The notes under the pieces are model-generated. The model did not search any database and was not told where the DNA came from. It saw only the letters and a program-made list of their open reading frames with translations. Below are positions 3,988 through 24,352 of a DNA stretch of 64,000 nucleotides, piece after piece (positions within the stretch are counted from its first letter, which is position 1; every line of letters starts with the position of its first letter). The stretch covers positions 20,465-84,464 of the forward strand of contig JAFGCO010000065.1 in the NCBI GenBank assembly GCA_016932575.1, in the 5' to 3' direction. This DNA is from a bacterium. Lineage in GTDB: Bacteria > Zhuqueibacterota > QNDG01 > JAFGCO01. Position numbers and translations under genes: made by a program.

Positions 3988-5136
3988 TTAAAATTCATAT
4001 CGGAATAAAATCGCCACATCCATTCCTTCGATATTTAATTTTTTTAAATCCTCGGCACTGATTCTTTGACCAACCATATATTTTATATAAAATTCAATGA
4101 ATGTGTTATATGAAAATCGGTATTCTCCCCCAAATCCTCCTCCCAGTGCTTTGGCCCATGATAATCCTGCTTCGTTTTCACCGTAAAAACGTCCGTCAAC
4201 TAAAACATTTGCACCGCCGCCCTGTATGTGAAAAGCCTTCCATATAATATTGAAATCCAGCTTCGGTGAGTTGCTGTTAAAAACTTCTTCCTTGAATAAC
4301 TGGCCCTGAAGCGCATAATTATTCGTTTTAGAACGATAATTTAAAAGTGCCCAGAGATAATATTCATCATAGCGATAAAAATAACCCAGATTGATTGTCA
4401 TTTTTGTCCCTGACTGAAATACATATTGAGGACTGTTGTATTTGTCTTTTTGGTAAAATGTAAAAATACCATCCAGCATGACCTTCATATCTTCATTAAA
4501 ACCCAGGTCGAGGCCAAGATGCACATTGGTTTCATCTCCCGGATCATAATAGCCATCGACTTTATTTCCCTGATTGGCCCAATTTGCGCTGTAAATGGGA
4601 ACAAACTTTCTTCGATACAAATAAGAGGCGCCGCCGCCAATGACGACATTATCTGAAAAGGAATGCGCAATAAGGGCACCGATTTTACCCTGAAATCCCT
4701 GACCATAGACAGGGGTTTTAAAATTGAATATGTTGAGATTTAAATGGGTTGATAAATAATATTCCTTATAATTCAGTCTTGTCTTACCCAGCGGAACACC
4801 AATCCCTCCTATGATAAGCAGCCGATTATCCCATAAAAGCAGATTTCCCTGCAGGTAGGGATCGGAAAATCCACCCATACTGGTATGACGCATATCCCAA
4901 TCTGTACGTGCATATGCATAATCAAAATTTAAATTAAAATGACTGTTAACCGGAATGACCATATGCACAGGAATGGTCACCTGCATAATGGGTTTTTCAA
5001 TGATAATTTCTTCCCGCCATATTTGCAGACAGGGGCCTGTTTTAATAAATCCCTTGGGAGCGCTTGGAATAATTTCTTCCTGCGCTAAGACATTTTGAAA
5101 CATGAACAGTATGATTAAGATGCAAATGCGTTTCAT
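3988..5136 (-). CDS. Outer-membrane beta-barrel protein, paralog A (cassette partner of giant protein A).
   Basis: Start refined to MKRICILIILFMF (AAGGAAA ribosome-binding site 7 nt upstream). The signal peptide ends ...NVLAQEE. Alternating amphipathic strands run throughout and the C-terminus is '...FRYEF' (terminal aromatic). It shares motifs with 14179..15279: 'DGRFYGENE', 'YDPGDE(T/F)NV', 'G(V/L)P(L/T)GKT.L', 'P.YGQG'. Confidence 0.55.
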   Translation of the reverse strand: MKRICILIILFMFQNVLAQEEIIPSAPKGFIKTGPCLQIWREEIIIEKPIMQVTIPVHMVIPVNSHFNLNFDYAYARTDWDMRHTSMGGFSDPYLQGNLLLWDNRLLIIGGIGVPLGKTRLNYKEYYLSTHLNLNIFNFKTPVYGQGFQGKIGALIAHSFSDNVVIGGGASYLYRRKFVPIYSANWANQGNKVDGYYDPGDETNVHLGLDLGFNEDMKVMLDGIFTFYQKDKYNSPQYVFQSGTKMTINLGYFYRYDEYYLWALLNYRSKTNNYALQGQLFKEEVFNSNSPKLDFNIIWKAFHIQGGGANVLVDGRFYGENEAGLSWAKALGGGFGGEYRFSYNTFIEFYIKYMVGQRISAEDLKKLNIEGMDVAILFRYEF

Positions 5137-5179
5137 CTCAATTTTCCTTGTCTTATAAACGATGGTCATCGTTAAAATG

Positions 5180-8100
5180 CTATTTTAAAAGAATCATCTT
5201 TCGTGTCGCTACTTTTCCTGCGGCTTTCAACTTATATATATAAACTCCAGAAGCCAGCTTCATGCCCTGGTCATTCGTTCCATCCCATATCACCTCGTGG
5301 TGACCGGTTCCACAATCGTTTTGAGCGATCTTTTTCACCTGCTGCCCCAATGCATTGAAAATGATGATTTCCACGTCTGATTTTCGAGGCAGACTGTAAT
5401 AAATCTTAGTCGCGGGATTAAATGGATTGGGCGAATTGGGATAAAGCTTAAATACGGCCGGTTCCAGTGAAATGCCATCACGATGCTGCTGAACAAAGGC
5501 TTCATTTCCGGCAATAATTTTAAAGGAACGCCTGGTGCTTTTCTTTTTGGTATTAATTGTGTAAATCTTTTTCATCTGGAGATCCGCAGCCACTTCATTT
5601 TCGGGATCAATTAAATAAGCCTGCCAGTTGTCCGGCATGGCCTGGATGAATTGCCAGGAAATCTGATACTTATGATTTTTTGACGGACAGTCCACATCAA
5701 TATTCCAGACATGCCCCTCTGAATTGCTTTTACGAATATCAGCCATATATTTTCCCGGCTGATATTCCCATTCTGAATGATCAAAATAAAGCGATGTGCA
5801 TTCAAAAAAGGAAGGCGGTGGTTCCGGTCGATCATAAGGATCGTACATGATATGGGCTTTCGGCCGCATTCCGGCATAATTATAGACATCGCGGCCGTAG
5901 TCATCAGATGCAGAAAATTGAATGAGCCAGGCATTTTCTTCCAGATTTTCCAATAACCGGTATTCAGAAACCTTCGATTTGCTCAGGGAGGATTCACGAG
6001 GCTGAATGTAGAGATATTCAGATTCATCCCCGGAATGATATACCCAGTATCCTACCCATGGCTCCAGAACCTGAATATCAGGTTCATAACCGTCTTGTCC
6101 CCATTCATAAGGCGGTGTAATAGTGCTGGAAGAGACAGCACAATCCGACCATTTTACATTAAAATTATAGGGATTGCCGATCATATTCCAACCTGGTGCC
6201 AGCTCTTTTTCAAAACTGTTTGCTGTAGAAACAGTCTTGCCGGGGCGGAGCTGGAAGTTCCGTTCAATATTACTGACAAGCCAGTATGCCCGTCCGGGAG
6301 GCAATGAGAAAAATACCGCATTGTCGTCAATAATCTGATTACCTTCGCCTCTTTTGGCATATTCAATATAATCATCATGAAAAGGATCCAAAGCATACAG
6401 GGGGCTTTTTGTGGGATCCCACCAGAATAGGCGCCATTGAAACGGATCATACTCAGAAATAGACACATCCACAAATACAGTATCCGGATCGTAGGTATCC
6501 AGTGAAAACGGAACAGAAAACATAGCAGCAAGCTGATATTTTCCCAGTTCATTTCTCTGTGCCGCGTAATGCATTTGCGTGATCATAGTCTCAAATCGGA
6601 TCTGCATAGAAAGCGGATTGTGCACTGCATCCACAACCGGATATGTATATGTCCGTTGCGTTTGCGATACCATATGGATATAGTATTCGAGGCCGCGTAA
6701 TGTCACACTGTCCGCAGGAATATTGGCCTTAAAAACAATATCACTTTCAGGAAAAGCAGATATCGAATGGTATTCTTCCATACCCGCCTGCCTGTAAAAT
6801 ATCTTTACTGATGACGGATTGACTTCATAAGGCACTTCGATGGCTATAGTGACCGGATCTCCCGCTTTTGGATGGGCTGGTGTCGGAGTGAGTATTTTTA
6901 TCCCTGCATCATGAGGCATATTAAAACTCCAGACTTCACGATCAATGTTTGAAAATCGGAATTCATCCAGATATCCCTGAAAATATCCGGAATAGCCTCC
7001 GGTTTTTCTCTCTGCTGCGCCAAGGAGCAGCGGCCGGACTGCATCTGCTTTTGGCTGGCCAATATCCCACTGTTTATTCCAAATTTCGATCCAATCAATA
7101 TACATGCTTCCGGAACGGGTATGTGAATCATATACAAAAGCCATATGGTGCCAGGCATTATCATTGACACGGGGGCCTGCGCCATCGAAGCCATTGACAA
7201 TTAAATGCCCGGTACTTCCAATCTTTATAACGAAATCACCCTGCATCAAAGAATCCTGATATCCCTTGCCTATTAAAACCTGTGAAACCGTATCGGTCCT
7301 GAAATAGCACTCTAAAGTAATACTTTCCCTGCTCAAATCATTCTGAAAAATATCCTTCCCGGGAATTTCAATGCGATCATTGTATCCGTCAAACCGGACA
7401 CCGGCTGTATAAAATCCCTTATTGGGTTCGATCCGTGCGCCATTCCACAGAAACCCCTGAAATTTATTATCTGAGTAATCAAGCACTGTATCACCTCGAG
7501 ATTCATTAAAATGATAAAGCGCCAATGTATACCGATCGGATGTATATTCTGCTGCACCCGGATTCTTGTAACCATATCCTTCTAAAGACAGGTTCACAGT
7601 GGGTGAATTCTCTGCATTACTGTGCAATGTAAACTGATATTGGTAATTAATCGCTTCAAGTACCGGTTTAAATGAAATTGGCAGATACATGGAATCAAGA
7701 CGATCCACTGAGAATGACTTTAAACTGTCCGGTATGCTGAAAATAGTATCCGCTCCTGTAACATGATGTATTTTCAGCGACTGATCCCCAAGATTCTTGA
7801 TCAGTACATCCAGGGTGCGTGTAAAGCCCAATTTCACCCCTTCATAATACAACTGATAGGAGGATACGTTAATTTGAGGCGGAACCACATTCAGATCCCA
7901 CGATTCCCGATTGATATTGGAAAAACGGATTTCATCCACGTACCCATAGAATTGCCGCGCATTGTCATAATCCGCTCCGAAATGGATTGTCCCGTCTCCA
8001 AGATCCAATAATTCACCCAAAAAAGCCAGGCTGTCTTGTACAATGCCGTTGATCATAAACCGCACCCAGTTGGCATCAAGAGAAACAGACACGTGATACC

Positions 8101-11100
8101 ATTGATTGACATCGATCTCATCCAAAGCATACCCGTGCAGGCTGAAACCATCGTTTTGCTGATTCCAGATTCGAGCCATAATTTCAGGGCTTTCACCGCT
8201 GGTAAAAAGAATTTCATACTGTTTCACGCCATCGGTTTCCTGCTGTACAAGAATGCCCCCATTGTCAGGTTTCACTGAAAGATTAAACCAGGTTTCAACA
8301 GTAAAATAAGAACCGACCTTTCCCGTAACTGCGGTTCCGGGAATCTCAAGAGAACCTCCGTAAAATCGAAGTCCCTTCCCAAATCGGCCGGTATCCGACA
8401 GTGCAACATTGCCAACCAGCTTGCCATGAATGCCATTTCCCGACGAATCCGCCAGAGTCTCCCCGTCCTCTCCAATTTCATCCAGATGGAAAAGTGCGAG
8501 AGTAAACTCATCTGAAGAATACGCATCCTGGCTGATCTCCGGAATGCCTTCGCCATATAGATTGACATTCCTTTGCGGCCAAAAAGGATCGTTTGTAAAA
8601 AATGTGATTTTCCCTGAGTGTTCACCCAGATCATGAGCCGTATATGTAATCCGCATCCTCCGGCTCTCTCCGGGAGCCAGTTGAAATCCGGACAGGTCCG
8701 TTTTAAAATAGTCATCCAGATCGATCGCCACCGTATCAACCACCAGTGTATCGATACCCAGATCATTGTTCACAGTTAATTCGAGAACCCGGCTCGATCC
8801 CAGATATACTTCCCCAAAATTTAATTTGGAGGAGGATACGGTGATCCTTGCCATATCCACATTAAATTCCCAGGTTTGCCTGCCAATGCCGGAAATTCGG
8901 ACTTCGTCAATATTGCCATAAAATGCATTGTTGGTTATCCAGCTCCCTCCAACCAGCAATGAAAGCGTATCCATAATGGCATGGGTTTGTTCATTCGCAA
9001 TGGTACCGACGAATCCGGCTTGATCAATTTGGTTTCCGTTGATATAAAGAAACAGGCTGTCCACACGCTGAACCAGTGCCACATGATACCATTGATTGAT
9101 TTGAATCGGACCCAAGTCTGCGCTATTCACTTCAAAAAAATCCTGGGATCCATTGTATATTCGTCCAATCAGTCTTCCACCATTGTCTATATACAGATCA
9201 AACTGATTGGCTGACGCACTTCCCCGGCGCATTAAAACACTCTGCGTAAATGGAAATTGATCCATCCTGAACCAGCTTTCAACAGTAAATCCGCCCCACT
9301 TTGATTCTAATACATCATCCGTCTCCGGACGAACAACCATCCGTTCATCATCCGCTTTAAATTTAAGAGAGTACCCTTCTCCAAATTTCTTCTGATCACC
9401 GTCATAACTCACCCCTCCCTGAAACGCACCGTCCATTCCCTGACCGGAACTATCGGAAGCTCCAGAAAGTAAATAGTCGTCGAAATGATATAATCCCAAC
9501 GTAAAATGATCTGTCTCATACCGGCCTGCTTTAAAACTGCTGACAGCTCTTCCTTTAATCGGTACGTTAAATGTAGGATAGGTCGGATCTGAATTGACAA
9601 TGGTAATGATATGTGAATCTGCATGATCCGATTCCTGCTGTGGTGAATAAGTAATCCAAAAAGTAGTAGACGTATTGGGAGATAAGGATATGGGGTAACT
9701 GGCATCAATATTCACTGAACTGTAATTGGAATATATATTTTGCACAGTAAGCAACTGTGAGCCACGGTTTCGGATAGTGACAGGTACTGTGCGGCTCTTC
9801 CCAAACAATACATTACCAAATTCGATTGTCGAAGGCTGGAGTGATATTCTCGCACGGTTTACATGAAATTCCCACGGCTGCCGGTCAATGATTGAAAGAC
9901 GAATTTCATCAATCAGGCCGTTAAATGGCAAATATCCTGTCGAAGTTGCACCGATGGCCATGGGTTCTGAGTTTTGCAAACGCAATTGCCCGGATACATA
10001 TGTCGCTGATACTTTATCACCATTTAAATACAGACGCAGACTGTCTGTGTCCCAGGTCAAAGCCGCATGATACCATTGACCGACATTCAGGATGGACATC
10101 GAACCGGACGTCACTTGATGTACTGTGCCATTTTCATCCCAGACACTTCCTATCAATCCTTTTTCGTTTTGATTGTCCAATGCCAGTTCGACCTGGCGGC
10201 TGGTGTCATTGCCGCGGCGCAGCAGGATGGCATATGTCTCAGGTTTTTGTGCGATATTAAACCAGGCTTCAATCGTGAAAGGAGTATCATAAAAATTCAG
10301 CGCACTGTGATACGGAATGTATATATAATCCGATTCCCCATCCAGATCAAGCGCTTTATTCAATCCGGTACGTGAATCCGCCTGATCAGGAGCTCCTTCG
10401 ACAAGGGCATCTTTTTCATAAAGCGATGCATCCTCAACCGATGTAGACACATCACCGTCATCCATATGATAAAGACCGACTGTAAATTCATCCCGCTCAT
10501 AAGGTCCCTCACTCACCGGCATGGAAATGCGTCCCTGCAATGTTATCTCAACCGTTGATTCATCGGGATCATTTGTGTATATATACGCCTTATCCACCTG
10601 GGTCGGATCAGCAATATCGGCTGTTGGAGAAAAACGAACCACAATCTGATGTGTATCTTCGCGGGCAACAGAAAAGGCGGTTTGACTAAAGGAAAACAGC
10701 GGGTTCAGCCACTGGATATTCTCAATCCGAAGCTGAGTGCTCCCCTGATTAATAAATCTTAATATTCTCGGTCTGGATTCTCCCGGCGGAACCGGTCCGA
10801 ACTCCAAAGGGCTGGAAGGAGTAATTGAAATATCCGGCTGAACGGCACTGCTGAATACATAGAGCCCGTCATTTCCGTCCGCCATGACAACATACCCCTT
10901 ATAAGGAGTAATGTCAAGAGCCAGAGGCGTCTCCTGGGTTTCATAATAACCTGTCTTTAAAAACACACCCGGCGTCGAAAAATCATATACAAGCAAGCCA
11001 AATTCTGCATCTGTAAGATAAATTGTTTTCTCTTTAACATAAATATCTGTGATCATACCGCCGGTAGCCACCCGGTTGACACTGTTGGTTTGTATATTCC

Positions 11101-12745
11101 ATATAAGAAATCCGTATCTGCCATTAGCAACAAACACTGTATCGCCGACAATATCCAGGCTGAAGGCTTCGATGTTATCCGTTAATGAATTGATCTGAAC
11201 AGGGGGGCCCGGCAGATCGATAATATTATACACATACACACCGCTGGAATCTGCCAAAAAGGCTCGATTGTCATGAACGATAATTTTCCTGGCAGATCCC
11301 GGTGTATTAATTTCATGCTTTTTTGTAAAATTAAAACCACTGTGCTCAATGACCATCATTCCAAGACCGCCGTAGGCCAGGAGTGCATAACTGCTGCCGT
11401 CTTCATTATAAATGGCCGCATCGTAACATGTATCGGTTTCGGAATTCCAGTATTGACCATACGATTCTGGAGAAGCAGGATTATCCATATACACAACATG
11501 CAGACCTTTCGATCCGTCCGCCAGGAATGCGAAACCGTCCTGAACCTGAACGCTTCTGACTTCACCGGGTGTATTGTATTCACTCAACAGTTCCAAATGA
11601 TCGAGAGTCTCTTCGTCATAATTCAGGTCAAATATTTTAAGTCCGGCATGCCCTGCTGCCACGTAAGCATAATGCTCATCCGTATCAACGTCATAAGCCA
11701 GATCAGAACTGGGCAGGATGCTCTCTATACTGATTTGGGAACCTTCCTGGACATCAGCCAGAACCAATCCGTTAGGACCGTCACATACATAAGCCGTATC
11801 TCCTTCCACCCAAATACGGTTCGAGATACCGTCAGTATCCAGGGGCGGAAATGGCAGAATTTGATTTTCAACAGTGACGGGATTCGAAACATCAATCGGT
11901 CCCCACACTCCATCATGTCCGCATACAATATATATATCACTTCCGGAATGACGCATATCAATCACATTCAGGGGTTGCGAATAATACCATCGGCCTTCTT
12001 CTTTTAAGTCCGAAGGATCCTGAATATCAATGATTCTTAATCCTCCCCACCCTGTTGCCGCATAGGCCATGCCGCCGATTGCAATCACATTCTGTGCCTT
12101 TGGTTCTGGCAATTGATAGCCGCTGAAAACAGAAGCAAAATCCAGTGAATCGAGCAAAACCGGGGTTTCTTTGACTTTTGTGCTAATCATAAACAGGCCG
12201 GATATGTCGGCAGCGACCAGTGCGAGCGTATCACGGACCACCCAGACATCACGGGCAGGCCTGCTGGTCGCATATCTTCCCTGAATATAAGGATCATATA
12301 TATTATTGACATTGATAATCAACATTCCCTGGGAGCCCGCAGCCACATATGCATGTTTGTAATTTTGACTCACGCCGGAAGCATATCCCCAGGTTCCAAT
12401 TTCACGAATACGGGTCAGCGTCTTGTTTATTGTATCCATCTGTACGATCTGAAGACCGGCATGACCGCAGGCTACATAAATATCCTGTAAATTGGAAACC
12501 ACCCAAATATCCTGTACAGCAGCTGGTAAAAGCAATTCCTTATAAAACTTCATTTCATGATTATCATGTTTATCCAGATATACCTGCAGATAGGCACCGT
12601 TGCCAACAAATGTAAAATCACCGCGCCGGAAAATGGCCTCACACCGGCCTTCAGCCCATCGGGCTTCACGTTCCACATTATCTTGACCCAATGCCCATTG
12701 AACACACAATGACAGGCTTATAAGTACGAAGATTTTTTTAAGCAT
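5180..12745 (-). CDS. Giant secreted surface protein A (~2521 aa). It has a signal peptide, an LVIVD-repeat beta-propeller, four [ASH/HYDIN-like Ig + LamG (Laminin_G_3-like)] modules, a conserved pre-CTD module and a type A T9SS C-terminal sorting domain.
   Basis: Start refined to the ATG ([21 protein letters not shown]) with GAGGAG 10 nt upstream; the track start is a TTG. LVIVD-like repeats: '[14 protein letters not shown]', '[16 protein letters not shown]', '[15 protein letters not shown]'. Ig-like modules: 'LEFGPV..', '[23 protein letters not shown]', '[18 protein letters not shown]', '[14 protein letters not shown]'. LamG modules: 'QWYHAALTW...LYLNG', 'QWYHVALVQ...LYING', 'QWYHVSVSL...FMING', 'AWHHMAFVY' plus 'IDE(V/I)R(L/I/F)S' motifs. 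CTD: '...[38 protein letters not shown]...[23 protein letters not shown]' (Por_Secre_tail/TIGR04183-like). Confidence 0.8.
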   Translation of the reverse strand: [2521 protein letters not shown]

Positions 12746-12790
12746 AGGTTGTGTTCTCCTCAAAATTCAAAACCATTATCCCGCCTATAA

Positions 12791-14164
12791 TCATTGTTCC
12801 GGTGGGCTCGGGGGTTCGGATAACATGTAAGGAATGATGGGAGCAGATGAAAAACTGGCTTCAACAAAAGGATTCCGAGAGTTCTGGCCGGGTAGTATCT
12901 GATTATTTTGCTGAACGCCCAACCATTGCAAACGGTTGTACGGGCTGACCAGGTCTGGTGGAGGCATAAAAACCAGTCGCGCTCTTCCCTTGGCTGTCGT
13001 TTCAACCATATGACGCACCTCGTAACTGACACGCATCTGATTATAATTGTGTGTGACTTCCCAAATATCCGGATTCACCATATAATCCCGTGCAGCAACA
13101 AAATCACCGTCATATTTTATTGCCCGATGAAAATAATTCTGGGCCAGTCTAAAACTGCTTTGATCCATCGCATCAAGGCCCTGGCAGTAGCTTAGAAACG
13201 CCGCTATATCCTCAGTGGGTATCTCTAAAAGTTCATTCCGCTCCTGATCTGTAATAAATATTCCAAAAAAATCAGAAATTCGCAGAGCCAATTCTTTCTC
13301 AATCTTGAAAAATCTCGCAATATTACCATCAAAATTCATGGTGGAGGCGATTGTATTGTTATCAGCCGCAACAATTTCAGCATCCAGTGTCATCTTTAAA
13401 TTATCTGTGATCAGGTATGATCCCCGAATGAGATACCGAACACCTAAGAGACGTGCAACTCTCTGCTGAACCTCCGGTTCACGAACGCTCATCGGATCAA
13501 GTCCCAACTCAGTCATCAAACTGTTGAGCAATGATCGATCAACCACAGTCAGATTCGATATGCATGAAAGATCCCGGACCAACAGATCAGCCAGACCTTT
13601 TTGCAATGGCGCCCACTCCGGATCATCACTCAGATTCAGAAAATAAGTTACAGCAACGCTGCTCTCAGGAAATTCATCAAATCGCCTGATATCTTCGCTT
13701 TCCATTGCTTTCTGCAATTCCCGGCGCACATGAACCTGTTTGATCCAATCGAGGCGTCCAAACATAAAGTAACGATAAGGATCATTTTCATTCAATGACG
13801 GGTAACTTTTATACGTGGCGATGGCAAGATCTTCCTGTCCCAAGGCCTCCTGACACATGGCTAGAAAAAATGCGGCTTTTCCATGTGCTGGATCCTTTTC
13901 CAAAACAGTTTTAAAAATCTTTGCAGCCGAGTTGTAACTCTGCTTATGCCAGTAGGCCACTCCAATACCGGTCACTGCCTCCCGATCGTACATGATAAAC
14001 CGTTTTCCGTCACGAATACGAGGCTGCAGCATTTTCAGATAATTCCGAATGGCCTGGTCATATTCTTTCTGGTCCAGAGCCTCTTCTGCTGCCTGGTATC
14101 TTGAAGTGGCGCATCCTGCCCATAAAAGGCAGAATATCAGGATGCTTGCAAGTTTCCATTTCAT
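12791..14164 (-). CDS. Lipoprotein A: an N-terminal TPR region plus a CsgG/LpoB/TolB-N-like 'AVxxFxN' domain, with a Pro-rich C-terminus.
   Basis: Lipobox 'LLWAGC|ATS'. TPR-like 'QKEYDQAIRNY...'. Motif 'SVAVTYFLNLSDDPEWAPLQKGLADLLVRDLSCISNLTVVDRSLLNSLMTELGL'. C-terminus '...SEPPSPPEQ'. It is paralogous to 22076..23518. Confidence 0.65.
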   Translation of the reverse strand: MKWKLASILIFCLLWAGCATSRYQAAEEALDQKEYDQAIRNYLKMLQPRIRDGKRFIMYDREAVTGIGVAYWHKQSYNSAAKIFKTVLEKDPAHGKAAFFLAMCQEALGQEDLAIATYKSYPSLNENDPYRYFMFGRLDWIKQVHVRRELQKAMESEDIRRFDEFPESSVAVTYFLNLSDDPEWAPLQKGLADLLVRDLSCISNLTVVDRSLLNSLMTELGLDPMSVREPEVQQRVARLLGVRYLIRGSYLITDNLKMTLDAEIVAADNNTIASTMNFDGNIARFFKIEKELALRISDFFGIFITDQERNELLEIPTEDIAAFLSYCQGLDAMDQSSFRLAQNYFHRAIKYDGDFVAARDYMVNPDIWEVTHNYNQMRVSYEVRHMVETTAKGRARLVFMPPPDLVSPYNRLQWLGVQQNNQILPGQNSRNPFVEASFSSAPIIPYMLSEPPSPPEQ

Positions 14165-15308: not shown

Positions 15309-15584
15309 TTACCCATATTTTTCTGGATAAAGAAGGGAATCAGTCAATATAAATATAGGTAAAATAGCAAATGACAAAACAACAATTCCAAATAAAGACC
15401 AAATTCTAAAATCCAATGCACAAAAGCCATTCATGAAATCGATGATAACGCTTGAAAACAAAACAAGAAGCCAAATATGAATGATCGGGCAATCTGATAT
15501 CACCAAAACGCAAATAAAATTTTGTTTGTCATTTGGATTTTTGTATTTATCTGTCATTTGGATTTTGTTTTTTTTATTTTTCAT
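15309..15584 (-). CDS. Possible small two-helix membrane protein (91 aa) between giant B and OMP B. It may equally be non-coding spacer.
   Basis: The ORF has two hydrophobic helices (HIWLLVLFSSVIIDF; LFGIVVLSFAILPIFIL). Its 5' end overlaps a 17-nt direct repeat, cassette A has no counterpart (10-bp gap there), and I see no clear ribosome-binding site. Confidence 0.2.
   Translation of the reverse strand: MKNKKNKIQMTDKYKNPNDKQNFICVLVISDCPIIHIWLLVLFSSVIIDFMNGFCALDFRIWSLFGIVVLSFAILPIFILTDSLLYPEKYG
15527..15568. repeat. Direct repeat TGTCATTTGGATTTT(T)G ×2, 26 bp apart, in an AT-rich stretch between giant B and OMP B.
   Basis: Read directly: '...tttgTTTGTCATTTGGATTTTTGtatttatcTGTCATTTGGATTTTGtttttttt...'. 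Confidence 0.5.
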
Positions 15585-15652
15585 ATAATATTGTTATTTT
15601 TCCCCGTCTGTCCAGTGATAAATTAAAGACATAGCTAAACGAGTGACAGGGA

Positions 15653-18600
15653 TCATTGAATCAGAATCATTTTTCGAATGGCTACACGACCCGGATACTC
15701 CAGCCGGTAAAAATAAACACCGCTGGAAACCCGTGTTCCGCGATCACTCACACCCGACCAGTGCAATTCATATTCACCTGAAGTCTGTTCTTCATTAACC
15801 AGTTGAGTGACCCTCTGTCCAAGCATATTAAATATGCTGAGACGGACACGCCCGCTTGCCGGCAGCGTGTATCGGATGGTGGTTTCCGGATTAAACGGAT
15901 TCGGATAATTCTGATAAAGATGAAATGCAATGGGAGCAATGACATTTTCCACCTGCTTTTCCACATATTCCGGCAAACCTGCAATACACTGAAATTTGCG
16001 GACATTCGGTGTATCCTTTCCGGTCACAATGGCATACTCATTTTTCGATATCATGTCGATAACCACGTTCTTATCTGGATCCACGAGCCGAACCTGCCAG
16101 TCTTCCGGCATGGATTGATGCAATATCCATTCGAATTCAACTAAGGATTTTTGCAGACGCGTCTCAACAACAACGTTCCAGGTGTATCCTTCATGATTGA
16201 TCTCTCGTATGTCGGCAGCATAGGTTCCGGGATGTTGTTTCCAGTCCGAATGATCAAAATACACGGAAATATAGTCTCCCATGGGCGGCGGTTCTGCACG
16301 ATCCCGAAGGTCCCATGCTTCCATTGCATCATGCCGGACGCCAAAAAAATTATCCAGGTCTTCGGCTGTTTCCGTTCTCGCTGAAAGCTGCCATACCCAG
16401 TCTGTTTTTATCATTTCATAAACAATGCTTCCCCTGACAGGTGCTTGTTTTGTCAAAGCTGCCGGTTCCCTTGGCGGAACATACAGATCCTGATAGGTCT
16501 GTGAAGCATTGTATATCCAATACCCGCCCCACGGTTCAAATACGGGCCAGTCGAGCCTGTATCCCTTGCCGTCATAATAATACAGGGTCTCAAGAGAATC
16601 AGAAGTAAGCGCACAGTCGTTCCAGTTCACCTGAAATGCAAACGGAGAACCGATCATATTCCACTGCGGCCGGATATGATACCGGCAGGGTGTTTCCGTG
16701 GATACCGAATATCCGGCACCGACATTCCAGCTTTTTTCACTTGCGGATATCAGCCAGAATGCCCTTCCCTGATCAAACGAAAAAATAAGGCTGTCCGCAT
16801 AGGAAAGGGTGTCGTCATACTCGCAATACATGGTATCTTTCCAGGTCAGGCAGCGCCATTTATACGGATCCCATGATCCAAGGTCGTCTTCCAGCACCGC
16901 TCCGGCATTGACATCATCCAGGTCTCCGGGAACGGATATCATGGTATATTTTTTTCCCGGCAGGGTTGTATCAGCCATCAGTGCGTTAAATCTTACCTGT
17001 TTGGTCAACGGTCGGTTCACAGGATCATACAGCGGGTGAGTATAGGTCTCACCGGAAACCGTCATTTCTACATAAAATTCCAATCCTCGTTCCGTTACTG
17101 ACGGTGCCGGAATCTCGACACTGTACTGGGTGCCGGTATCATCCCCTGCGACAGGTGTGGCCTGAAGGGTCTGATAAGACCGCTTTCCGCCCTGCCTGTA
17201 ATGCAGCCATACCTCCCTTCCGGCTTCACCCTCTGATGCAGGCAGGGTGATATCAACACTCTTAGGATTATTTTTTCTTGCATTTCCACTGATGGAGGCA
17301 AAAATACCTGTTCCTTTGAAAATCAAATCCCATGGCTGGCGCGCGATACTGGATATCCGGATCTCATCCATCTGCCCCTGGAAATATCCGGTTCTTTGGT
17401 TGGCTGCTGTTTCTCGAACACCGAAACACAGAGGACCGGAATTGCTGATATCTGTGTCGCCGGCTTCCCATTTACTTTGTATCTGGATTTCACCATCCAG
17501 ATACAGAGTGCCACGATGATTGGTCGTATCGTAAACAAAGGCCACATGGTGCCAGACTCCGTCCGCCACATAAGCGGTTCCCTTGCCAAAACCATGAAGA
17601 GACAACAGACCATTTGTATCGATGGACAAACCGTAATTGGCACGGTTATCTCCGCCCCGATACGGATCTTTGAAGAAAATCACCTGATTAAGTGTGTCTG
17701 TCTTAAAAAAACACTCGATGGTAAATGGTTCTGATGCCATATCGAAACGTAATCCTTCCGCATCATTCACAATGGCATAATCACTGAAGCCGTTAAATTC
17801 AAGCCCGCCGTCAAAATAGGCAGAGGCTGTCCGGCTGCCGTGCAGTGTGCCATTATATTTACCGGTGGCGTCTGCAACTGTATTGGCCGCGGCATCGCAA
17901 TGATAGAGCGCAATCGTGTAATCATCCAATGCATAAGGTGCTTTTGGACGGTAATCAATCCCGGCCGCAGTTAATACGATCTCATAAACAGGCATGTCCG
18001 GGTCATTACTGTGAATGCGAAGTGTGTCCTTTACGCTGACTGCTGTTTGGGGCACGAACCGTACTGTAACAGTAATGGTCTCATTCACCGTCAGTGTGTC
18101 GTGATCCGGACTGATTTCAAAAACGGATGTTCGGGTTGTCATACTGTTGATTATGAGCGGAAGAGCGCCAAAATTGGAAATTGCAAAGGTCCGGCTGCTG
18201 TCGCTCTCGATAAAAACGGTTCCAAAATCCAGTTGTTTGGTTGCAATTGCCAAATTTGGAATTCCGACATTCAATTCTTCAGGCTGCCGGTCGATATTTG
18301 AAAACCGGATTTCATCGAGATACCCGTTGAATCCACGGCCTGATCCATAAGCTCCGCCCATGGCCAGATCTGCCTTCGAACTGCGCAGGTTCCCGCTGAA
18401 GTCCGTTGAATCCACAATCACTCCATTCAGGTATAACCGTAATTTATATCGGTCCCAGGTCACGGCCATATGATACCATTTTTCAAGATCCATCTCAGAA
18501 TCAGGCGGGCCAAATAGTGAGAAAACCTTATTGTTGGCGGCATAAAATCGCACCACCAGTCCTTTCCCGGTGCTCAGCGTGTCATTGTACAGCACTTCGT

Positions 18601-21600
18601 ACTGTAAATCGGTTCCTGAACCGCGCCGGAAAAGCACATAGTCTTTATTCGCCGCCGGTTTTCCTGCCAGGCTGAACCAGGTTTCCATACTGAAAGGTGT
18701 GTTTGTATAATCGAACAGGGTATGATAAGGAATCCAAATCCAGCTGGTGTCTCCTGTGAAACGGAGGGCCGAAGCACCGTATTTTTTATAAAGTGTATTC
18801 CATGAAAGGCCGAGCCCTCGAAAATAACCGATCAGCCCGTTCCCGGAAGCGTCAGGAATCGAATCCATATCCACAGTCCCGTCCAGATGCCACAGACCGG
18901 ATGTATAAATATCCGGCTCATAGGCTGCCAGACTGATGGACTGAAAACCGACGCCTGAGAGCGGAATGCGGACTGTCGGTCGAAACAAATCGCTCGAGTG
19001 AAGGGTCAGCGTATCCCGAAAAGTCCGGACAGCTGACGGTGTAAATCGGACCCAGATTGTACGGCGTCCGTCAGACGTTAATTCGAATTCCGTGTCCGAA
19101 ATGTCATAGTGATTTGTTTCTGTAAACAGACTGTCGACCGTCAGGGGGCCTTCTCCGTTGTTTCTTATTGTCATATAATAATATTTGGATTTTCCCACAT
19201 AAACACTTCCGAATGCGGCACTGCTGACTGTCGTTGAAATACGTCCCGTGCTGATATTAAACTCCCACGGCTGGCGTTCCAATGCAGACAGCCGCATTTC
19301 ATCCATAACACCGTGAAAAGGATGAGCCAATCCAGCATCGTTGCCAATAGTCGCCGATATCACACCTGAAGGATACGGAACAGTCATCTGTTTCTGATCT
19401 TCAAGATTGCCGTTTAAATAAAGCTTGAGTGTACCACCCATGGTCAGTGCCGCATGATACCATTGGTCCCTGACCAATGGTGTTTCTGTATTTGACAGAA
19501 GCGTATCGATTTTCTGAACACTTTGTGATGACAGTCCCATCAGACGATTTTTATTCACGCTTAATTCATAGATAATGCGGTCCCCCTCTGCCAGCCTGAA
19601 CAGGACAGCGGTTCCTTCCGGAATGGCATTGAGCTTAAACCAGGTTTCAATGGTAAATCCCTGCCATTTGTCAAATGAAGGGAACTGACCAATGGATTCC
19701 AGATTGATATGGACAATATCGTTTTCATTAAAAATAAGCCCCTGATCAAACTTCCCGTCATCCGCTTTGGTGACCGTTGCACCGGTTACCGTACCATCCA
19801 TCAGGCCATAGTCCGATTCATCCTGCAGAGTCGCGCCATTCAGTGCATCCATATGGTACAGTGCATAGGCATAATAATCAGGAGAATAAGCGGCCAGGGG
19901 AGTGGGCTGAATTCCCGTTCCGAGAACCGGAAGTGAATGCGGACTGTTGACCGCATCGGTCTGCAATTTCAGTGTATCATAAATTGTAGTATAAGCGGCG
20001 GGTGTAAATCGAACAACAATATAAGCGGTTTCTCCCGCTGAAATCCATTGAGGCAGGTACAGAGCAGAAAACCGTCCTGTGTTGCAGGTCAATTCGCTGG
20101 CATACACCGCTGTGGAGCCGGTGTTGCGGACAATCATGGACAAAGTCCGGCTTTTCCCCAGAACAACGTTTCCGAAATCCAGTGAATCGGCATCGACCTG
20201 CAGCTCTCCGGTAAAATCCGCCTGAAGATAATAGACACCGCCTTCACCGTCGGCCACCACCACAGTATCATCAACCACATCCACTGCATAACTGGTGCCG
20301 GCTGTGTGATACGATCCGACCGCATCAAGACTTTCCGGATTCGTCAAGTCAATCAGCCGAATGGTTCCCTGCCCGTCGGCCACGACTGCGATATCGCCGT
20401 GAAAATCCACATCATAGGCGTACCCTTCCGTATCAATTTGATCCGAGGGCGTGATATTTTCGGTATTTGAGACATTTAAACCGAGAAGCCCGTTGGATCC
20501 GTCGGCCGCATAAATGATATTAGCGCCGGCTGCCGGAACGCCAATTGATTGAATTTCACTCTCATTGTCATAGGTGCCTGTAATTGTGTTTGTATTGATA
20601 TCGAGCACCTTTAAACCGTCTGTACCTGCAGCGATATAAACGCGGTTCGACCGTTCATCAGCAGTCACACCGATGGCGTCAAATCCATTGATACCCTCAA
20701 TCAGTCCTTGATCGACCGGTTCAAGACTGTTGCTTATATCCACAACACGAATACCTGAAGTGCCTTCGGCCACATAGGCATTGTCGCCAAAAATCGTGAC
20801 ATCAAGCATTTCGTTCGCAGTCTCAACCGTTGTAATCTTCGTTGCAGTAGCGGGATTAGACACATTATAAAAAATCAAACCGCCTGTACCATCGGCAACC
20901 ATCAGAACATTCCCGTCGAGAGCCAATCCCATGGCATTCTGGGTGTTCCTGTGCGCATATATCGTGATTTTTTCATCATCAAGATGCGCATGATTGAGTA
21001 TCCATAATCCGGATTCACCCCCCGCTACAAAAGTGGCCTCAGGGCTGAAAAGAACATCCATCGCCTGACCGCCGGATGTGACAGAATCAACCAGGTCAGG
21101 AGGAGCAACTGCCACATCAATTTTTTTCAAACCTGAATTTCCTTCAGCCAGATAGACATAATTTTGATCAATATACAGAGACAAGGCGTCTCCGCCTGTT
21201 TCGCGTGATGTTTTTTCCGTCATGGTGGTTAAATCGATGACCCTCAATCCGTATCCCTCATCAGAGAGATAGGCAGTTTCCGCGCTCACATCCACCGCTA
21301 TATCACTGAGGCTGACTATCTCGGGCTCTGCGATCCATTGACCGGCCACGTTGATATTTTCCGGATCAGTGATATTAACCGCCAGAACACCTTGATTTCG
21401 ATCAGCGACAAAAGCAGTGGTTCCGCGGACTGAGACACCATAAGCGGATCCTGGAGTATCCGCCGTATCGAGCGCTGCAGGACTGGAAGGACTGGATATG
21501 TCAACCGCAACCAATCCCAGGGCATCCACCGCCAGATAGGCATAATCACCCGAGACGGCCACATCCTGTACAGGAGATGAAAACTGTAAATATCCCGCAG

Positions 21601-22039
21601 GATCCAGTGTGTTTTCAATCACTTCGATGATATAGAATCCGGACTCGCCGTCCGCCACATAGATACAGCCATCTTGATAGGCAATCCGGCGGGCCGAGCC
21701 TTCCGTATAATAATGCCCGAGTTCGTAAGGTGAAGTAATGCTCGACCGGTCCAGCATATAAATACCGATGTCTTTGACTGCCACATAAATTTTAAAAGAT
21801 TGATAATAAATATCCTGAATCAATCCGGGAAATTCATATCTCGAATAACGGCCATCCGGATTGGTGGCATCCAAAATATCGAGATAGCTGCCGTTGCCCA
21901 TGTATAAAGCATCCGCAGTGGCTACGACCGATCGGCAGGGACCACTGGCCCATCGGGCGAGTAAAGATAAATTATCAACCTGCTGCGCCAGCAATGACAT
22001 TGAAAACGCTGATAATACAGCAATTATTTTCCTTTTCAT
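15653..22039 (-). CDS. Giant secreted surface protein B (~2128 aa), paralog of A. It has an LVIVD-repeat propeller, three [ASH-Ig + LamG] modules, a conserved pre-CTD module and a type A T9SS CTD.
   Basis: Start refined to ATG ([20 protein letters not shown]) with AGGGAG 5 nt upstream; the track start is a GTG. Ig-like: '[26 protein letters not shown]', '[26 protein letters not shown]', '[26 protein letters not shown]'. LamG: '[10 protein letters not shown]..LYLNG', '[10 protein letters not shown]..LYLNG', '[10 protein letters not shown]..LYLDG' plus 'MDE(M/I)R(L/I/F)S'. Shared pre-CTD motifs: '[10 protein letters not shown]', 'GYWIY', 'DHSDW'. CTD: '[36 protein letters not shown]...[23 protein letters not shown]'. 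Confidence 0.8.
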   Translation of the reverse strand: [2128 protein letters not shown]

Positions 22040-22075
22040 AATCACTCCCTATAGGAATTATGAACTCATTGTTTA

Positions 22076-23518
22076 CTATGGACGATGCGGTGGCGGAGGC
22101 GGATCCGGCAAATACCACGGATCAACCGGATAATGAGTATTCGGCGGATCCGGAGGATCTGGCAGTCCTTTTGTTAAATCGGGAAACAGATCCGCCAGTT
22201 CACCAATATTGATTTCCTCGAAAGCTTCGCGAGAATCACTGCCGGGGATAAATCCGGCATCCAGATACCACCCCATCTCCTGTAATCGATCAACAGGGCC
22301 GAGATGCACCCATGCATCATATCCCACATCTGTTGTTTGCGTCGACGGCCCGATTTTCAACAGCGTAATCATTTTCGTTTGCAGGGCCATCCAGTCTCTG
22401 TTTTGTGTTGCTTTGAAAACATCTGGTGAAGCCATGATCTGATCGGCTAATATAAATCCGGGATCCAGCTTTACCGCGCTTGCCAGGTACTTTTGAGCCG
22501 TATCATACTGATCGTGGTCAAGAGCATACAGAGCGTATGCGTAATTCAGGAAGGCCTGGAAATTGCGTGTCGAAGGCATTTTCAAACGGTTCATTTGAGA
22601 AGCTGTCAACTGAACACCCAAATCACTTAACACATTCAGAACAATTTTCTTTTGGAGCACAATAATATTCTTCAATTCTCCCTCAATATCCGATTCTTTG
22701 ATATGGCGGACACCGGTAAAGGTCAACGTACGTTGATCAATTTTCAGAATTCCGGAACCCCTCATCTCAATTTTTCCCTGAACCACAGTACCGACATTGA
22801 GCAATCTTTGCAGCTTTTCAACATGATCGATGTTCTCAAGATCTCGCGGACTCCATCCCAGGGCCTGCATTAACTGAACAGTTTTTTCTCTGGGCACCAC
22901 CTGAAAACCGCCAATGCGATTAAAATCATGAATCACCAGGCTGGCAATGCCTGCACTTATAATGGTTCCTTTTAAATCTGAGCCGGCATAATGAAAATCC
23001 AGAACAACCATGCGCTGACTTGAAAAATCCGCCTGATCATCGGGTCCGCGTGCAGCCATCTTTTTCGCCTCTTGAATGTACTGCTGCTTATTTAAAAAAT
23101 ACAAACGCCCTTTCATCGCATCCCTCGCGGGATCGCCTTCGTTCAATGCCTTATAATTCGCATAAATCGGAAGGGCCAGTTTCGATTTTCCCTGTCGTTC
23201 ATAGCACATCCCCAGATAAAAATAGGCGGCTCCGTAGGAAGGCGATTTTTGATTGACATAACGAAACACTTTGATTGCGCCATCCAGCATATTCATGTTT
23301 AAAGCGGAAATGCCAATTTTTGTCATGATCTCCGGTGAATATCGGATATATCGACTTCCATCTTGTGAACGAACTTGTAGAGAATTGATATAAGACTGCA
23401 TTGCCTTTTGATACTCTTTTTGACTAAAATAGGCATCACCCTGAGTCTGTTTAGATAGACCCGTGCATCCGAGCATCAAGGCAATTAGGCCTATACCTGC
23501 CCATCGCCAAATTATCAT
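22076..23518 (-). CDS. Lipoprotein B: TPR plus a CsgG/LpoB/TolB-N-like domain and a poly-Pro C-terminal tail.
   Basis: Lipobox 'ALMLGC|TG'. 'QKEYQKAMQSYINSLQVRSQDG' parallels 'QKEYDQAIRNYLKMLQPRIRDG' of lipoprotein A. 'RMVVLDFHYAGSDLKGTIISAGIASLVIHDFNRIGGFQVVPREKTVQLMQALG'. C-terminus 'PDPPDPPNTHYPVDPWYLPDPPPPPHRP'. Confidence 0.65.
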   Translation of the reverse strand: MIIWRWAGIGLIALMLGCTGLSKQTQGDAYFSQKEYQKAMQSYINSLQVRSQDGSRYIRYSPEIMTKIGISALNMNMLDGAIKVFRYVNQKSPSYGAAYFYLGMCYERQGKSKLALPIYANYKALNEGDPARDAMKGRLYFLNKQQYIQEAKKMAARGPDDQADFSSQRMVVLDFHYAGSDLKGTIISAGIASLVIHDFNRIGGFQVVPREKTVQLMQALGWSPRDLENIDHVEKLQRLLNVGTVVQGKIEMRGSGILKIDQRTLTFTGVRHIKESDIEGELKNIIVLQKKIVLNVLSDLGVQLTASQMNRLKMPSTRNFQAFLNYAYALYALDHDQYDTAQKYLASAVKLDPGFILADQIMASPDVFKATQNRDWMALQTKMITLLKIGPSTQTTDVGYDAWVHLGPVDRLQEMGWYLDAGFIPGSDSREAFEEINIGELADLFPDLTKGLPDPPDPPNTHYPVDPWYLPDPPPPPHRP

Positions 23519-23641
23519 AGACCCTCCTTAGCTCCACTGACTCCCCCTAAGGCATAGGTGAAGATCATGGATAGTAAACGGGAAGTAAATTTAAGGTTAC
23601 GGCACCATTTTAAAGAATCATATTTTTTGGTTGTGCCTGTC

Positions 23642-24352
23642 TCACTCCATTTGCCGCTTTTTTTCTGCAATACGCAGAATTGCATCTTTCGCTTGTTGAA
23701 ATTCAGGCTCGATTTCCAGAGCTTTTTTATATTGTGAATAGGCTTTCTGAAGCTGATTCTGATCCTCAAAACTCAGACCTTCTGAAAACAGAACCACCGC
23801 CTCAATCTTCAGGGTCTTTCCTGAATCCAACATTTTACTTTCTGACTTGGTTAACCGCACAGAAAGGTCATCCAATAATTTCTTGCTCAGCTTTTTAATC
23901 AAAGACAGAATTTGCCGGGTTTTTCCTGTAGTTTCTTCTGCCTTGACCACCGATCCGGTCTCTACTTCTACAATGCGCAGATCGATACGGATTTTATCAC
24001 CGGGCATCACCATATAACTGCCAAATACCAAATTCTTTGCACCCAGCATTTTACCAACCTGAATTGAAGTTGATTCAGAAATCAGTCCCGACTGCACCAT
24101 TTTCAATTCATCCAGCATCTCCTGCATCCGCCGGCGTTCTACCATTTTGACCGATTCGATCCGACTTAACTCGGTGATCATCATCTCTGCCAGGCCCTGA
24201 GATAACGCGGCATAAGCATCCGCGTTCATAAAAGACCTGTTTTCGAAATCGAGAACTGCCAGAGTGATCGTATCACCATAAATGGCCAAACCGGCGAACA
24301 ATAAAAAATTGACAATCAGTATGCGGAAACAGAATTTCATAATCGCTTTCAA
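23642..24352 (-). CDS. Secreted CsgG/LpoB-like domain protein with a C-terminal TPR-like helix pair. It is the first gene of the super-operon.
   Basis: Signal peptide, then 'ITLAVLDFENRSFMNADAYAALSQGLAEMMITELSRIESVKMVERRRMQEMLDEL'. C-terminus 'YSQYKKALEIEPEFQQAKDAILRIA'. Confidence 0.55.
   Translation of the reverse strand: MKAIMKFCFRILIVNFLLFAGLAIYGDTITLAVLDFENRSFMNADAYAALSQGLAEMMITELSRIESVKMVERRRMQEMLDELKMVQSGLISESTSIQVGKMLGAKNLVFGSYMVMPGDKIRIDLRIVEVETGSVVKAEETTGKTRQILSLIKKLSKKLLDDLSVRLTKSESKMLDSGKTLKIEAVVLFSEGLSFEDQNQLQKAYSQYKKALEIEPEFQQAKDAILRIAEKKRQME

Follow-up and report, generated by a model that had tools for sequence, protein, structure and literature searches.

Judged from its sequence, the triad of a TPR–CsgG/LpoB-like lipoprotein, a giant T9SS cargo protein with a type A CTD and a beta-barrel OMP, which occurs twice in the window (the whole stretch of DNA analysed, 64 kb), is a real, conserved module. 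With a probability of about 0.5, we regard it as a cargo-specific docking or shuttle device, an analogue of the PorP/SprF–PorE systems that would have arisen from unrelated protein families.

The module spans 24352..3988 and comprises seven co-oriented ORFs on the minus strand. A gene for a small CsgG/LpoB-like protein with a TPR comes first, followed by cassette B and then cassette A, and each cassette runs from lipoprotein through giant cargo to OMP.

23642..24352, minus strand: small CsgG/LpoB-like protein, predicted secreted; 236 aa, one TPR; fourth, shared component of the module
22076..23518, minus strand: lipoprotein B; 480 aa, TPR families, 27% identity to lipoprotein A
15653..22045, minus strand: giant cargo B; ORF of 2130 aa, 2128 aa from the likely ATG
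15908..17314, minus strand: pre-CTD module of giant B (aa 1578-2045), common to cargo with differing passengers
15656..15910, minus strand: T9SS type A CTD of giant B; TIGR04183, 41.7 bits (cutoff 23)
15310..15652, no strand: spacer between giant B and OMP-B; 343 bp, 30% GC
14179..15309, minus strand: OMP-B; 376 aa, predicted 16-strand beta-barrel, OMP profile E 1.4e-117, likely start at the second ATG (MNKF...)
12791..14164, minus strand: lipoprotein A; 457 aa, architecture as in lipoprotein B, TPR and PF03783 (21.9 bits)
5180..12763, minus strand: giant cargo A; ORF of 2527 aa, 2521 aa from the likely ATG
5441..6898, minus strand: pre-CTD module of giant A (aa 1956-2440)
5183..5437, minus strand: T9SS type A CTD of giant A; TIGR04183, 34.3 bits (cutoff 23)
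3988..5169, minus strand: OMP-A; 393 aa, predicted 16-strand beta-barrel, C-terminal end ...RYEF
3921..3953, minus strand: hairpin and T-run, seen by eye in the sequence and likely to terminate the last gene

The intergenic gaps measured 10, 27, 14, 343, 30 and 123 bp. The earlier note had counted eight genes with gaps of 10–123 bp in a single transcription unit of ~20 kb. Its eighth gene was a 91-aa low-complexity ORF, the only content of the 343-bp spacer and dubious as a gene, which found no match in Pfam and NCBIfam; transcription as a single unit is thus unproven. Within this AT-rich spacer, which could hold a promoter, also lies the region's best sigma-70-like match on the minus strand (15614..15585). 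In a relative (locus L050) the corresponding junction is 27 bp or less. The hairpin and T-run described past the last gene at ~3953..3921 (GCTGTCCGG-AATGAAAT-GCCGGGCAGC-TTTTTTT) were legible by eye only and were not listed by the consensus scanner. The statement that no such signal occurs earlier held for the 343-bp spacer, where a scan for a hairpin followed by a T-run found none.

Paralogy of each gene class between the cassettes, proposed before, was borne out by identities of 27–32%. OMP-A and OMP-B shared 27% identity (E 9e-48), the two lipoproteins 27% (E 2e-62) and the two giants 32% across 1591 columns, and the small protein matched the central domain of lipoprotein A (24%, E 4e-19). 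At the level of sequence, the tandem duplication of the cassette as a whole is real. The duplication is probably old and would have left the window with two orthogonal cargo/OMP/lipoprotein sets that differ in their passengers.

Both giants begin with a Sec signal peptide, read by eye from the translations (MLKKIFVLISLSLCVQWALG followed by QDN and MKRKIIAVLSAFSMSLLA followed by QQV). In giant B, the signal peptide precedes an LVIVD beta-propeller, three units of HYDIN/ASH Ig plus Laminin_G_3, the pre-CTD module and the type A CTD; giant A likewise carries an LVIVD propeller, then four Laminin_G_3 domains with HYDIN/ASH Ig, the pre-CTD module and the type A CTD. These results agree with the earlier domain calls (LVIVD, HYDIN/ASH/choice-of-anchor D, and Laminin_G_3 stretches numbering three in B versus four in A) and with the type A assignment of both CTDs, since TIGR04183 scored above its cutoff in each giant. 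The TIGR04183 matches sit at the extreme C-terminus, and the type B-like CHU_C model reached 21-23 bits in the giants, under its cutoff of 27. Conservation in the cargo centres on a new module of ~455 aa directly before the CTD, for which searches of Pfam and the PDB gave no match. The N-terminal passengers vary, being LVIVD and LamG here, Sortilin/BNR and ASH in locus L055, and a PQQ propeller, FN3 and ASH in locus L014. The earlier note had missed that this pre-CTD module, and not the LamG/propeller passenger, is conserved with the OMP. No gene for SprA/Sov, PorK/L/M/N, PorV or PorU was found among the scanned ORFs of the 64-kb window.

The OMPs belong to a new family, which has 1,057 cluster representatives and is covered by no Pfam or NCBIfam model. 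AlphaFold predicted a 16-strand barrel (pLDDT 92). On the predicted topology, conservation is highest in extracellular loop L3, where 7 positions reach at least 80%, followed by L4 (4 positions), and the periplasmic turns are the least conserved (0 positions at 80% or more). An identity as PorP/SprF, PorV or FadL was ruled out by HMM and by fold. The PorP/SprF models PF11751 and TIGR03519 gave nothing for OMP-A and OMP-B at E <= 0.1, for the OMP of L055 at E <= 0.01, or for 39 diverse family members at E <= 1, and the adjoining cargo bears a type A, not a type B, CTD. The combination of a 14-strand FadL-like barrel and a Toluene_X HMM match that would mark PorV or FadL was not found.

Lipoprotein B has a signal peptide ending in Cys, N-terminal TPRs, a central CsgG/LpoB-like domain, a C-terminal TPR and a Pro-rich tail. 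Its central domain (~135 aa) gave no Pfam CsgG match and was matched by a domain profile built from homologues (E 6e-44); lipoprotein A passed the PF03783 cutoff of 20.8 bits. The small protein matched PF03783 with 65.4 bits, only over profile positions 10-97 of 210, and PF13036 (LpoB) with 24.3 bits (cutoff 22.3). As the CsgG match is limited to the soluble half, transmembrane hairpins are not expected. CsgG channels were rejected as an identity for the lipoproteins and the small protein on this ground and because NF011731 scored 17.7 bits against a cutoff of 505; in a PDB profile search, the CsgG matches were marginal (E 0.004-0.13), and the lipoproteins gave no match to PelC. PorE was rejected too, with NF052230 at 13 bits (cutoff 600), a resemblance confined to the N-terminal TPRs, and no OmpA_C, WD40 or CRD domain detected in the lipoproteins by Pfam. 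The small protein shares 44-49% identity with small proteins whose genes come immediately after the OMP gene in other phyla; of 55 loci that could be evaluated, 22 have a CsgG-like ORF behind the OMP. The earlier note had passed over this small protein, which regularly accompanies the triad as a fourth member.

When 185,579 species genomes were scanned by motif, 73 members of the OMP family turned up, all of them in MAGs; the labels were Bacteroidota, Ignavibacteria, KSB1, Calditrichia, Zhuqueibacterota or unclassified. Apart from unclassified genomes and two that are apparently mis-binned, every genome in which the scan found the family bore the label of a T9SS-bearing FCB lineage. Among the 66 OMPs with a readable upstream side, a T9SS-CTD cargo ORF ended at the OMP start in 52 (49 with the pre-CTD module), a CsgG-like lipoprotein gene lay directly upstream in 11, and something else in 3. 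The refuting case named in the earlier note, ordinary porins scattered without cargo neighbours, does not apply to these OMPs; cargo or lipoprotein is directly upstream in 63 of the 66 loci. The full lipoprotein–cargo–OMP order recurs at 23-31% OMP identity (L008, L011), and conservation of the triad extends far beyond close relatives into genomes labelled as several FCB lineages. In L010 the order is lipoprotein–OMP–cargo. Profiles of the OMP, CsgG-like domain, CTD and pre-CTD module had zero matches in the 64-kb window outside the module.

Across 45 cassettes, OMP identity between pairs correlated with that of the adjoining pre-CTD module (Spearman 0.76), a figure confounded by the shared ancestry of linked genes, whereas the value for OMP and CTD was 0.38. 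Identity averaged 29% among OMPs, 31% among pre-CTD modules and 45% among CTDs; between A and B, it was 30.5%, 36% and 47%, respectively. The closer tracking of the OMP by the pre-CTD module, together with the A/B contrast, fits a split in which the CTD would serve shared machinery and the pre-CTD module a private partner.

In the docking reading, each cassette would provide a giant surface protein and, in the outer membrane, a receiving station dedicated to it. The giant would cross the inner membrane by Sec, as its legible signal peptide suggests, and then presumably the outer membrane, with the matched type A CTD guiding it through the general T9SS. The ~455-aa pre-CTD module would then dock on its cognate 16-strand OMP, with the conserved loops L3 and L4 (extracellular or lumenal) as the probable contact site, and so may hold the variable propeller/LamG/Ig passenger at the cell surface. 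The TPR–CsgG/LpoB-like lipoprotein and the small protein would be periplasmic and could scaffold the barrel, oligomerise around it or tether it. An anchoring or tether function, as suggested before, is an inference. Gene linkage, the shared pre-CTD module, co-divergence, L3/L4 conservation, the type B precedent and the FCB distribution argue for docking. Several observations count against it: type A cargo are thought to need only PorV and PorU (PMC12618676), 11 of the 66 loci have lipoprotein and OMP without cargo directly upstream, and the weak conservation of the periplasmic turns disfavours a fixed lipoprotein-barrel interface. Plain anchoring is also countered by the CHASE2 cyclases, Ser/Thr kinases or caspases that are co-operonic with the module in other lineages, a hint of signalling.

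This hint leads to the foremost of the rival readings, which we nevertheless consider unlikely: a trans-envelope sensor in which the giant would sense contact or a ligand, and the OMP and periplasmic TPR/LpoB-like proteins would pass its state on to a sensor in the inner membrane, for instance a CHASE2 cyclase or PEGA Ser/Thr kinase. In Chitinophagaceae-type loci (L080), genes for cargo, OMP, a small CsgG-like protein, an 843-aa TPR protein and a CHASE2+cyclase protein follow one another in this order, all on the same strand and either overlapping or separated by very short gaps. CHASE2 proteins were found in 12 of 86 loci, even though most of the 86 are pieces of just 8 kb. In L009 and L010, Pkinase-PEGA, FHA and PP2C genes are the immediate upstream neighbours of the module. 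Similarity links the small protein to the CsgG-like+TPR portion of the TIGR04510 cyclase (E 4e-11). However, no signalling gene adjoins the module in the window or in the close relatives (L001-L003, L011), and the association is lineage-specific, absent from most loci and compatible with docking combined with regulation.

Next in rank, and improbable too, is capture and uptake, with the OMP as a substrate-specific porin at whose mouth the lectin-like/propeller giant would concentrate a glycan or another nutrient. In 16-strand barrels, conservation of L3 is equally a hallmark of the porin constriction loop; this makes a channel function of the modelled OMP possible and counts against docking. 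A PelBC/curli-type export channel ranks after it with a small chance; here a ring of CsgG/LpoB-like TPR lipoproteins under the 16-strand barrel would export a giant-bound polymer or thread part of the giant. Against it stand the lack of a linked polysaccharide synthase or amyloid subunit gene in the window or the L001-L011 gene tables, the CsgG match to the soluble half only, the PDB profile search negative for PelC, the location of the TPRs on the lipoprotein and not the barrel, and the bona fide T9SS signal of the giants. That an ordinary OMP and lipoproteins merely lie beside T9SS cargo genes is very improbable, given the 63 of 66 loci in several FCB labels, the duplication of the cassette as a whole and the co-divergence of its cognate parts.

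In current T9SS models, a shared PorV shuttle and the PorU sortase suffice for type A cargo, and private barrels are reserved for type B. If the docking reading is true, the information for final T9SS substrate targeting can lie outside the CTD, anchoring by cognate partners arose at least twice from unrelated protein families, and many uncultured FCB bacteria rely on machinery that model organisms have not revealed to deploy the largest of their surface proteins. Three family-level units lack a Pfam/NCBIfam model or a domain-level description, namely the OMP, the pre-CTD module and the TPR–CsgG-like lipoprotein architecture. Cassettes A and B offer testable orthogonal pairs in one genome. More tentatively, and with doubt, the module might represent an unrecognised T9SS accessory branch of several FCB lineages, in which a subclass of type A-CTD giants would bear the ~455-aa targeting module and a private 16-strand barrel, backed by the TPR–LpoB/CsgG-like lipoproteins, would receive it, the complex being in some lineages wired to CHASE2/PEGA proteins to signal surface engagement.

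Our literature search found no paper describing an OMP and lipoprotein triad around type A cargo, in line with the earlier note, which had missed the formal precedent among type B cargo. Type A CTDs use PorV (PMC12618676), and a genetic link to PorP/SprF-like partners is known for type B cargo only (PMC12618676; PMC9143113). PorP/SprF-like barrels are proposed to receive and hold type B cargo, often with PorE-like TPR lipoproteins, as in PorP-PorE-PG1035, and in F. johnsoniae porP-like genes adjoin porE-like genes (PMC9143113; PMC12618676).

Among the known systems compared, PelBC/PgaA/BcsC differ from the module, which gave no match to PelC in the PDB profile search, bears its TPRs on the lipoprotein instead of the barrel and is linked to a T9SS protein as substrate, not to polysaccharide genes. 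The central domain of the lipoproteins and the small protein is shared with CsgG (N-terminal soluble half only) and LpoB. PorV (LptO), the general type A shuttle, is likewise an outer-membrane barrel of ~390 aa, and it binds type A cargo, as the module OMP would. The logic and parts list are most like those of the PorP/SprF–PorE–type B systems (P. gingivalis PorP-PorE-PG1035; F. johnsoniae SprF-SprB). In both, the cargo gene adjoins those for a private barrel and a TPR periplasmic lipoprotein, and cognate pairs are multiplied within one genome. The cargo CTD is type A in the module and type B in the PorP/SprF systems, and the module barrel, unlike PorP/SprF, does not match PF11751/TIGR03519. 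The module lipoprotein has a CsgG/LpoB-like core, whereas PorE has a beta-propeller, CRD and OmpA_C. The conserved cargo determinant is the ~455-aa pre-CTD module here and the CTD itself in the PorP/SprF systems, and only the module has a fourth component, the small CsgG-like protein.

Seven co-oriented genes were read on the minus strand of the window, from 24352 to 3988. A small protein was followed by two cassettes, B and A, each consisting of a TPR-containing CsgG/LpoB-like lipoprotein, a giant T9SS cargo protein and an outer membrane protein (OMP).

about 3953..3921, 3' of OMP-A: hairpin followed by a T-run
3988-5169, minus strand: OMP-A, cassette A
5180-12763, minus strand: giant A, cassette A
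12791-14164, minus strand: lipoprotein A, cassette A
14179-15309, minus strand: OMP-B, cassette B
15310-15652: AT-rich spacer, 343 bp, 30% GC, with a 91-aa ORF and a sigma-70-like match
15653-22045, minus strand: giant B, cassette B
22076-23518, minus strand: lipoprotein B, cassette B
23642-24352, minus strand: small CsgG/LpoB-like protein, 236 aa, before cassette B

The intergenic gaps, in order of coordinates, were 10, 27, 14, 343, 30 and 123 bp. The earlier note had counted eight genes with gaps of 10-123 bp; its supposed eighth gene was the 91-aa ORF within the 343-bp gap, which had no family hit and was rejected as a gene. The hairpin and T-run that it had placed past the last gene were directly readable in the sequence, and its tandem duplication was confirmed, each gene class being paralogous between the cassettes: OMP-A and OMP-B shared 27% identity (E 9e-48), the two lipoproteins 27% (E 2e-62) and the two giants 32% over about 1,600 columns. 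The part of lipoprotein A with which the small protein aligned was the central domain. Judged from this layout, co-transcription of all seven genes is plausible.

Of the minus-strand sigma-70-like matches in the region, the best fell inside the 343-bp spacer. The spacer had an internal inverted repeat, a weak one, and lacked a hairpin with a following T-run; RNA folding gave z = -1.26, and Rfam returned no family match. With the spacer as query, BLAST against the window and all fetched loci revealed neither repeats nor mobile-element copies of it; it was unique in this set. At the equivalent junction of a relative (L050) the spacer was missing, at most 27 bp being present. The spacer may be what remains of an insertion, or it may contain an internal promoter ahead of OMP-B.

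Several other genes of the window were recorded. A GWxTD-domain protein (24662-25939, plus strand; TIGR04514, 111.5 bits) was divergent from the operon start. Three ORFs (736, 466 and 397 aa; 40046-43656, plus strand, and 35767-36960, minus strand) had no Pfam match, and the 397-aa ORF adjoined a FIMAH-domain protein (34213-35745). A 1,560-aa protein (53966-58648, plus strand) combined an AMP-binding (acyl/aryl-CoA ligase-like) enzyme with a GNAT acetyltransferase at the C-terminus; the roughly 800 residues between the two domains had no assignment.

Both giants started with a signal peptide and an LVIVD beta-propeller, followed by HYDIN/ASH (choice-of-anchor D) Ig domains alternating with Laminin_G_3 domains. 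The different LamG counts and the type A CTDs claimed for them were both found: three Laminin_G_3 domains in giant B and four in giant A, and TIGR04183 scores of 41.7 and 34.3 bits against a cutoff of 23. About 450-490 aa without a family match preceded the CTD in each. In the lipoproteins, TPRs at the N-terminus preceded a central domain of about 135 aa, one more TPR and a Pro-rich tail; the small protein had the same type of central domain with one TPR. The central domain matched CsgG over the N-terminal half of the profile and, as found in the small protein, also LpoB. Since the CsgG match was restricted to positions 10-97 of 210 and the equivalog model, whose cutoff is 505, scored 17.7 bits, these proteins were ruled out as CsgG channels. 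A profile search of PDB sequences with this domain gave only a marginal CsgG match. PorE was also rejected for the lipoproteins after negative membership tests.

Neither OMP matched Pfam or NCBIfam. A homologue search recovered only 6-7 close relatives even with a 39-sequence alignment. The family was revealed by an exhaustive profile search, in which 181 representatives of 50% clusters had E <= 1e-30 and 1,057 had E <= 1e-3; source records annotate the members as "hypothetical protein". The AlphaFold2 model (136-sequence alignment; pLDDT 91.9, pTM 0.84) had a strand pattern fitting a canonical 16-strand barrel, with periplasmic turns of 2-4 residues, long extracellular loops and an aromatic residue at the C-terminal end. 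The best-conserved motifs, G.G.PTGKT.L...E, P.[YF]GQG and Y[DN]PG[DN]E, were located in loops L3 and L4; conservation was highest in L3 and lowest in the periplasmic turns. Searched against PDB sequences, the OMP profile gave only a partial OprC match (E 0.004). PorV, FadL and PorP were considered as identities and rejected, the PorP/SprF and PorV membership tests being negative.

No stretch of 7-10 columns in the OMP alignments was conserved enough for a standard locus search. DNA of one genome per species (185,579 species) was scanned with a degenerate fixed-spacing motif, PTGK-23 aa-P.[YF]GQG. Of 75 hits, 73 encoded a family OMP at E < 1e-50; because the motif is present in only about 21% of the family members sampled, these 73 loci are a biased subset. 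All 73 came from MAGs and none from isolates.

Loci with a family OMP, by record label
Bacteroidota, including Chitinophagaceae, Cytophagia, Rhodothermales and Salinivenus: 28 loci
Unclassified: 24 loci
Ignavibacteria / Melioribacter: 13 loci
KSB1: 4 loci
Apparently mis-binned, Thermoplasmatota archaeon (L036) and Synechococcus (L083): 2 loci
Calditrichia: 1 locus
Zhuqueibacterota: 1 locus

The implausible labels of L036 and L083 are probably due to binning contamination. Upstream of the OMP, an ORF carrying a pre-CTD module (about 455 aa just before the CTD) and a CTD ended at the OMP start in 49 of 66 readable loci; the others had a CsgG-like lipoprotein (11), a CTD-only ORF (3) or something else (3). 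A T9SS-CTD or lipoprotein gene thus lay directly upstream in 63/66 loci, which bears out the neighbourhood conservation of the triad. A small CsgG-like protein was encoded downstream in 22/55 loci. The commonest order was lipoprotein, cargo, OMP, small protein; the window departs from it by having a single small protein ahead of two cassettes. Close relatives (L001-L003) were syntenic with the window, and in a more distant MAG (L066) OMP-B was likewise followed by a lipoprotein A-like gene, which makes the tandem arrangement an old one. L011 (OMP identity 31-34%) had just one cassette, in the order small CsgG-like protein, lipoprotein, LVIVD/LamG giant and OMP, and L008 (23-25%) had a lipoprotein, a 1,841-aa ASH/HYDIN giant and an OMP. 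Two lipoprotein-OMP pairs preceded a 1,638-aa giant in a Bacteroidota MAG (L010). On a 1.59-Mb metagenome contig (L009), two lipoproteins, an OMP and two smaller T9SS cargo genes were found, and the OMP clustered with a protein of a Calditrichota MAG. L004 and L005 had lipoprotein and OMP genes with no giant in between.

In L044, a locus with lipoprotein and OMP but no cargo upstream, a BNR/FN3 protein (5843-7945) followed the OMP, its ORF being truncated close to where the 8-kb piece ends. Related ORFs of the same BLAST cluster occurred in L004, L005, L028, L048, L054 and L068. In L044-type loci the cargo may sit downstream of the OMP.

The cargo passengers varied, from LVIVD plus LamG in the window to Sortilin/BNR plus ASH (L055) and a PQQ propeller with FN3 and ASH (L014). 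Common to all these cargo proteins was the region just ahead of the CTD.

Giant A, residues 1956-2440: pre-CTD module
Giant B, residues 1578-2045: pre-CTD module

An alignment of this module comprised 31 sequences, none of which matched Pfam; a profile search of PDB sequences also gave no match. Some Bacteroidota cargo retained only the C-terminal ~290 aa of the region. Across 45 cassettes, pairwise identities of the OMP correlated far more closely with those of the adjacent pre-CTD module (Spearman 0.76) than with those of the CTD (0.38); overall identity was 45% for the CTD versus 29-31% for OMP and pre-CTD module. Comparison of A with B in the window gave 47% identity between the CTDs and 36% between the pre-CTD modules, with the OMPs (30.5%), lipoproteins (29%) and propellers (28%) further apart. 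The co-divergence is supportive and not decisive, because common descent of linked genes adds to the correlation. These sequence comparisons indicate that the travelling partner of the OMP is the pre-CTD module and not the passenger.

Signalling genes adjoined the module in several lineages. In Chitinophagaceae-type loci (L080, 257-7999, minus strand; also L013, L027, L034, L052, L072 and L083), the genes overlapped or had tiny gaps and came in the order OMP, small CsgG-like protein, an 843-aa protein, and CHASE2 plus adenylate/guanylate cyclase; the 843-aa protein contained TPRs, and part of it was similar to the N-terminus of ProA, an anti-phage protein (E 1e-19). In two distant lineages (L009, 3806-9969; L010, 1-9995), the lipoprotein/OMP genes were immediately preceded by genes for FHA proteins, a PP2C phosphatase and a PEGA-fused Ser/Thr kinase. 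L004/L005 encoded, two genes past the OMP, a CsgG/LpoB-like domain fused to a caspase (Peptidase_C14, 'EACC1-associated type'; 12104-14182) and, just upstream on the opposite strand, a CHASE2 protein (7199-8401), a neighbour common to the Ignavibacteria-type loci L028, L048 and L068.

From the observed domain identities, fold, linkage, co-divergence and conservation pattern, we propose, with a probability of roughly 0.5, that type A giants are held at the surface by their cognate barrel through the pre-CTD module. The giants would leave via the general T9SS using the type A CTD; the pre-CTD module would then dock on the cognate barrel, probably at the conserved L3/L4 face, and so keep the variable adhesin-like passenger at the cell surface. 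On the periplasmic side, the TPR-LpoB/CsgG-like proteins may act as a scaffold or tether for the barrel. Transport, docking, interaction topology and the lipoprotein role are the parts that we infer. A trans-envelope sensing device is an unlikely rival reading. It draws on CHASE2-cyclase genes co-operonic with the module in Chitinophagaceae-type loci, on CHASE2 proteins in loci of the Ignavibacteria type, on the Pkinase-PEGA, FHA and PP2C genes of L009 and L010 and on the resemblance of the small protein to part of the TIGR04510 cyclase; the window has none of these signalling genes. A porin acting with a capture protein appears slightly less likely again, and just below it we place an export channel like that of PelBC or curli. 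PelBC likewise combines a 16-strand barrel with TPRs and a small lipoprotein, in its case a ring-forming one, but the profile search of PDB sequences with the CsgG-like domain showed no sequence relationship to PelC. That the genes are merely coincidental neighbours is very improbable.

Full-text literature searches, covering papers outside subscription-only access, found no description of the module, in line with the earlier note's view of the arrangement. We regard the module as real and conserved, and it appears to be undescribed. It would provide T9SS substrates with a cargo-specific outer-membrane partner, here attached to type A cargo and built from uncharacterised families. In its logic the module comes nearest to the type B arrangement, in which PorP is the binding partner of PorE and of the type B protein PG1035, SprF is that of SprB, and six porP-like genes of F. 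johnsoniae adjoin porE-like genes (PMC9143113). The parts list of this arrangement matches that of the module, but the module proteins gave negative results in all tests of membership in PorP/SprF, PorV and PorE. As far as inference goes, the module would work like the type B arrangement while being no member of it.
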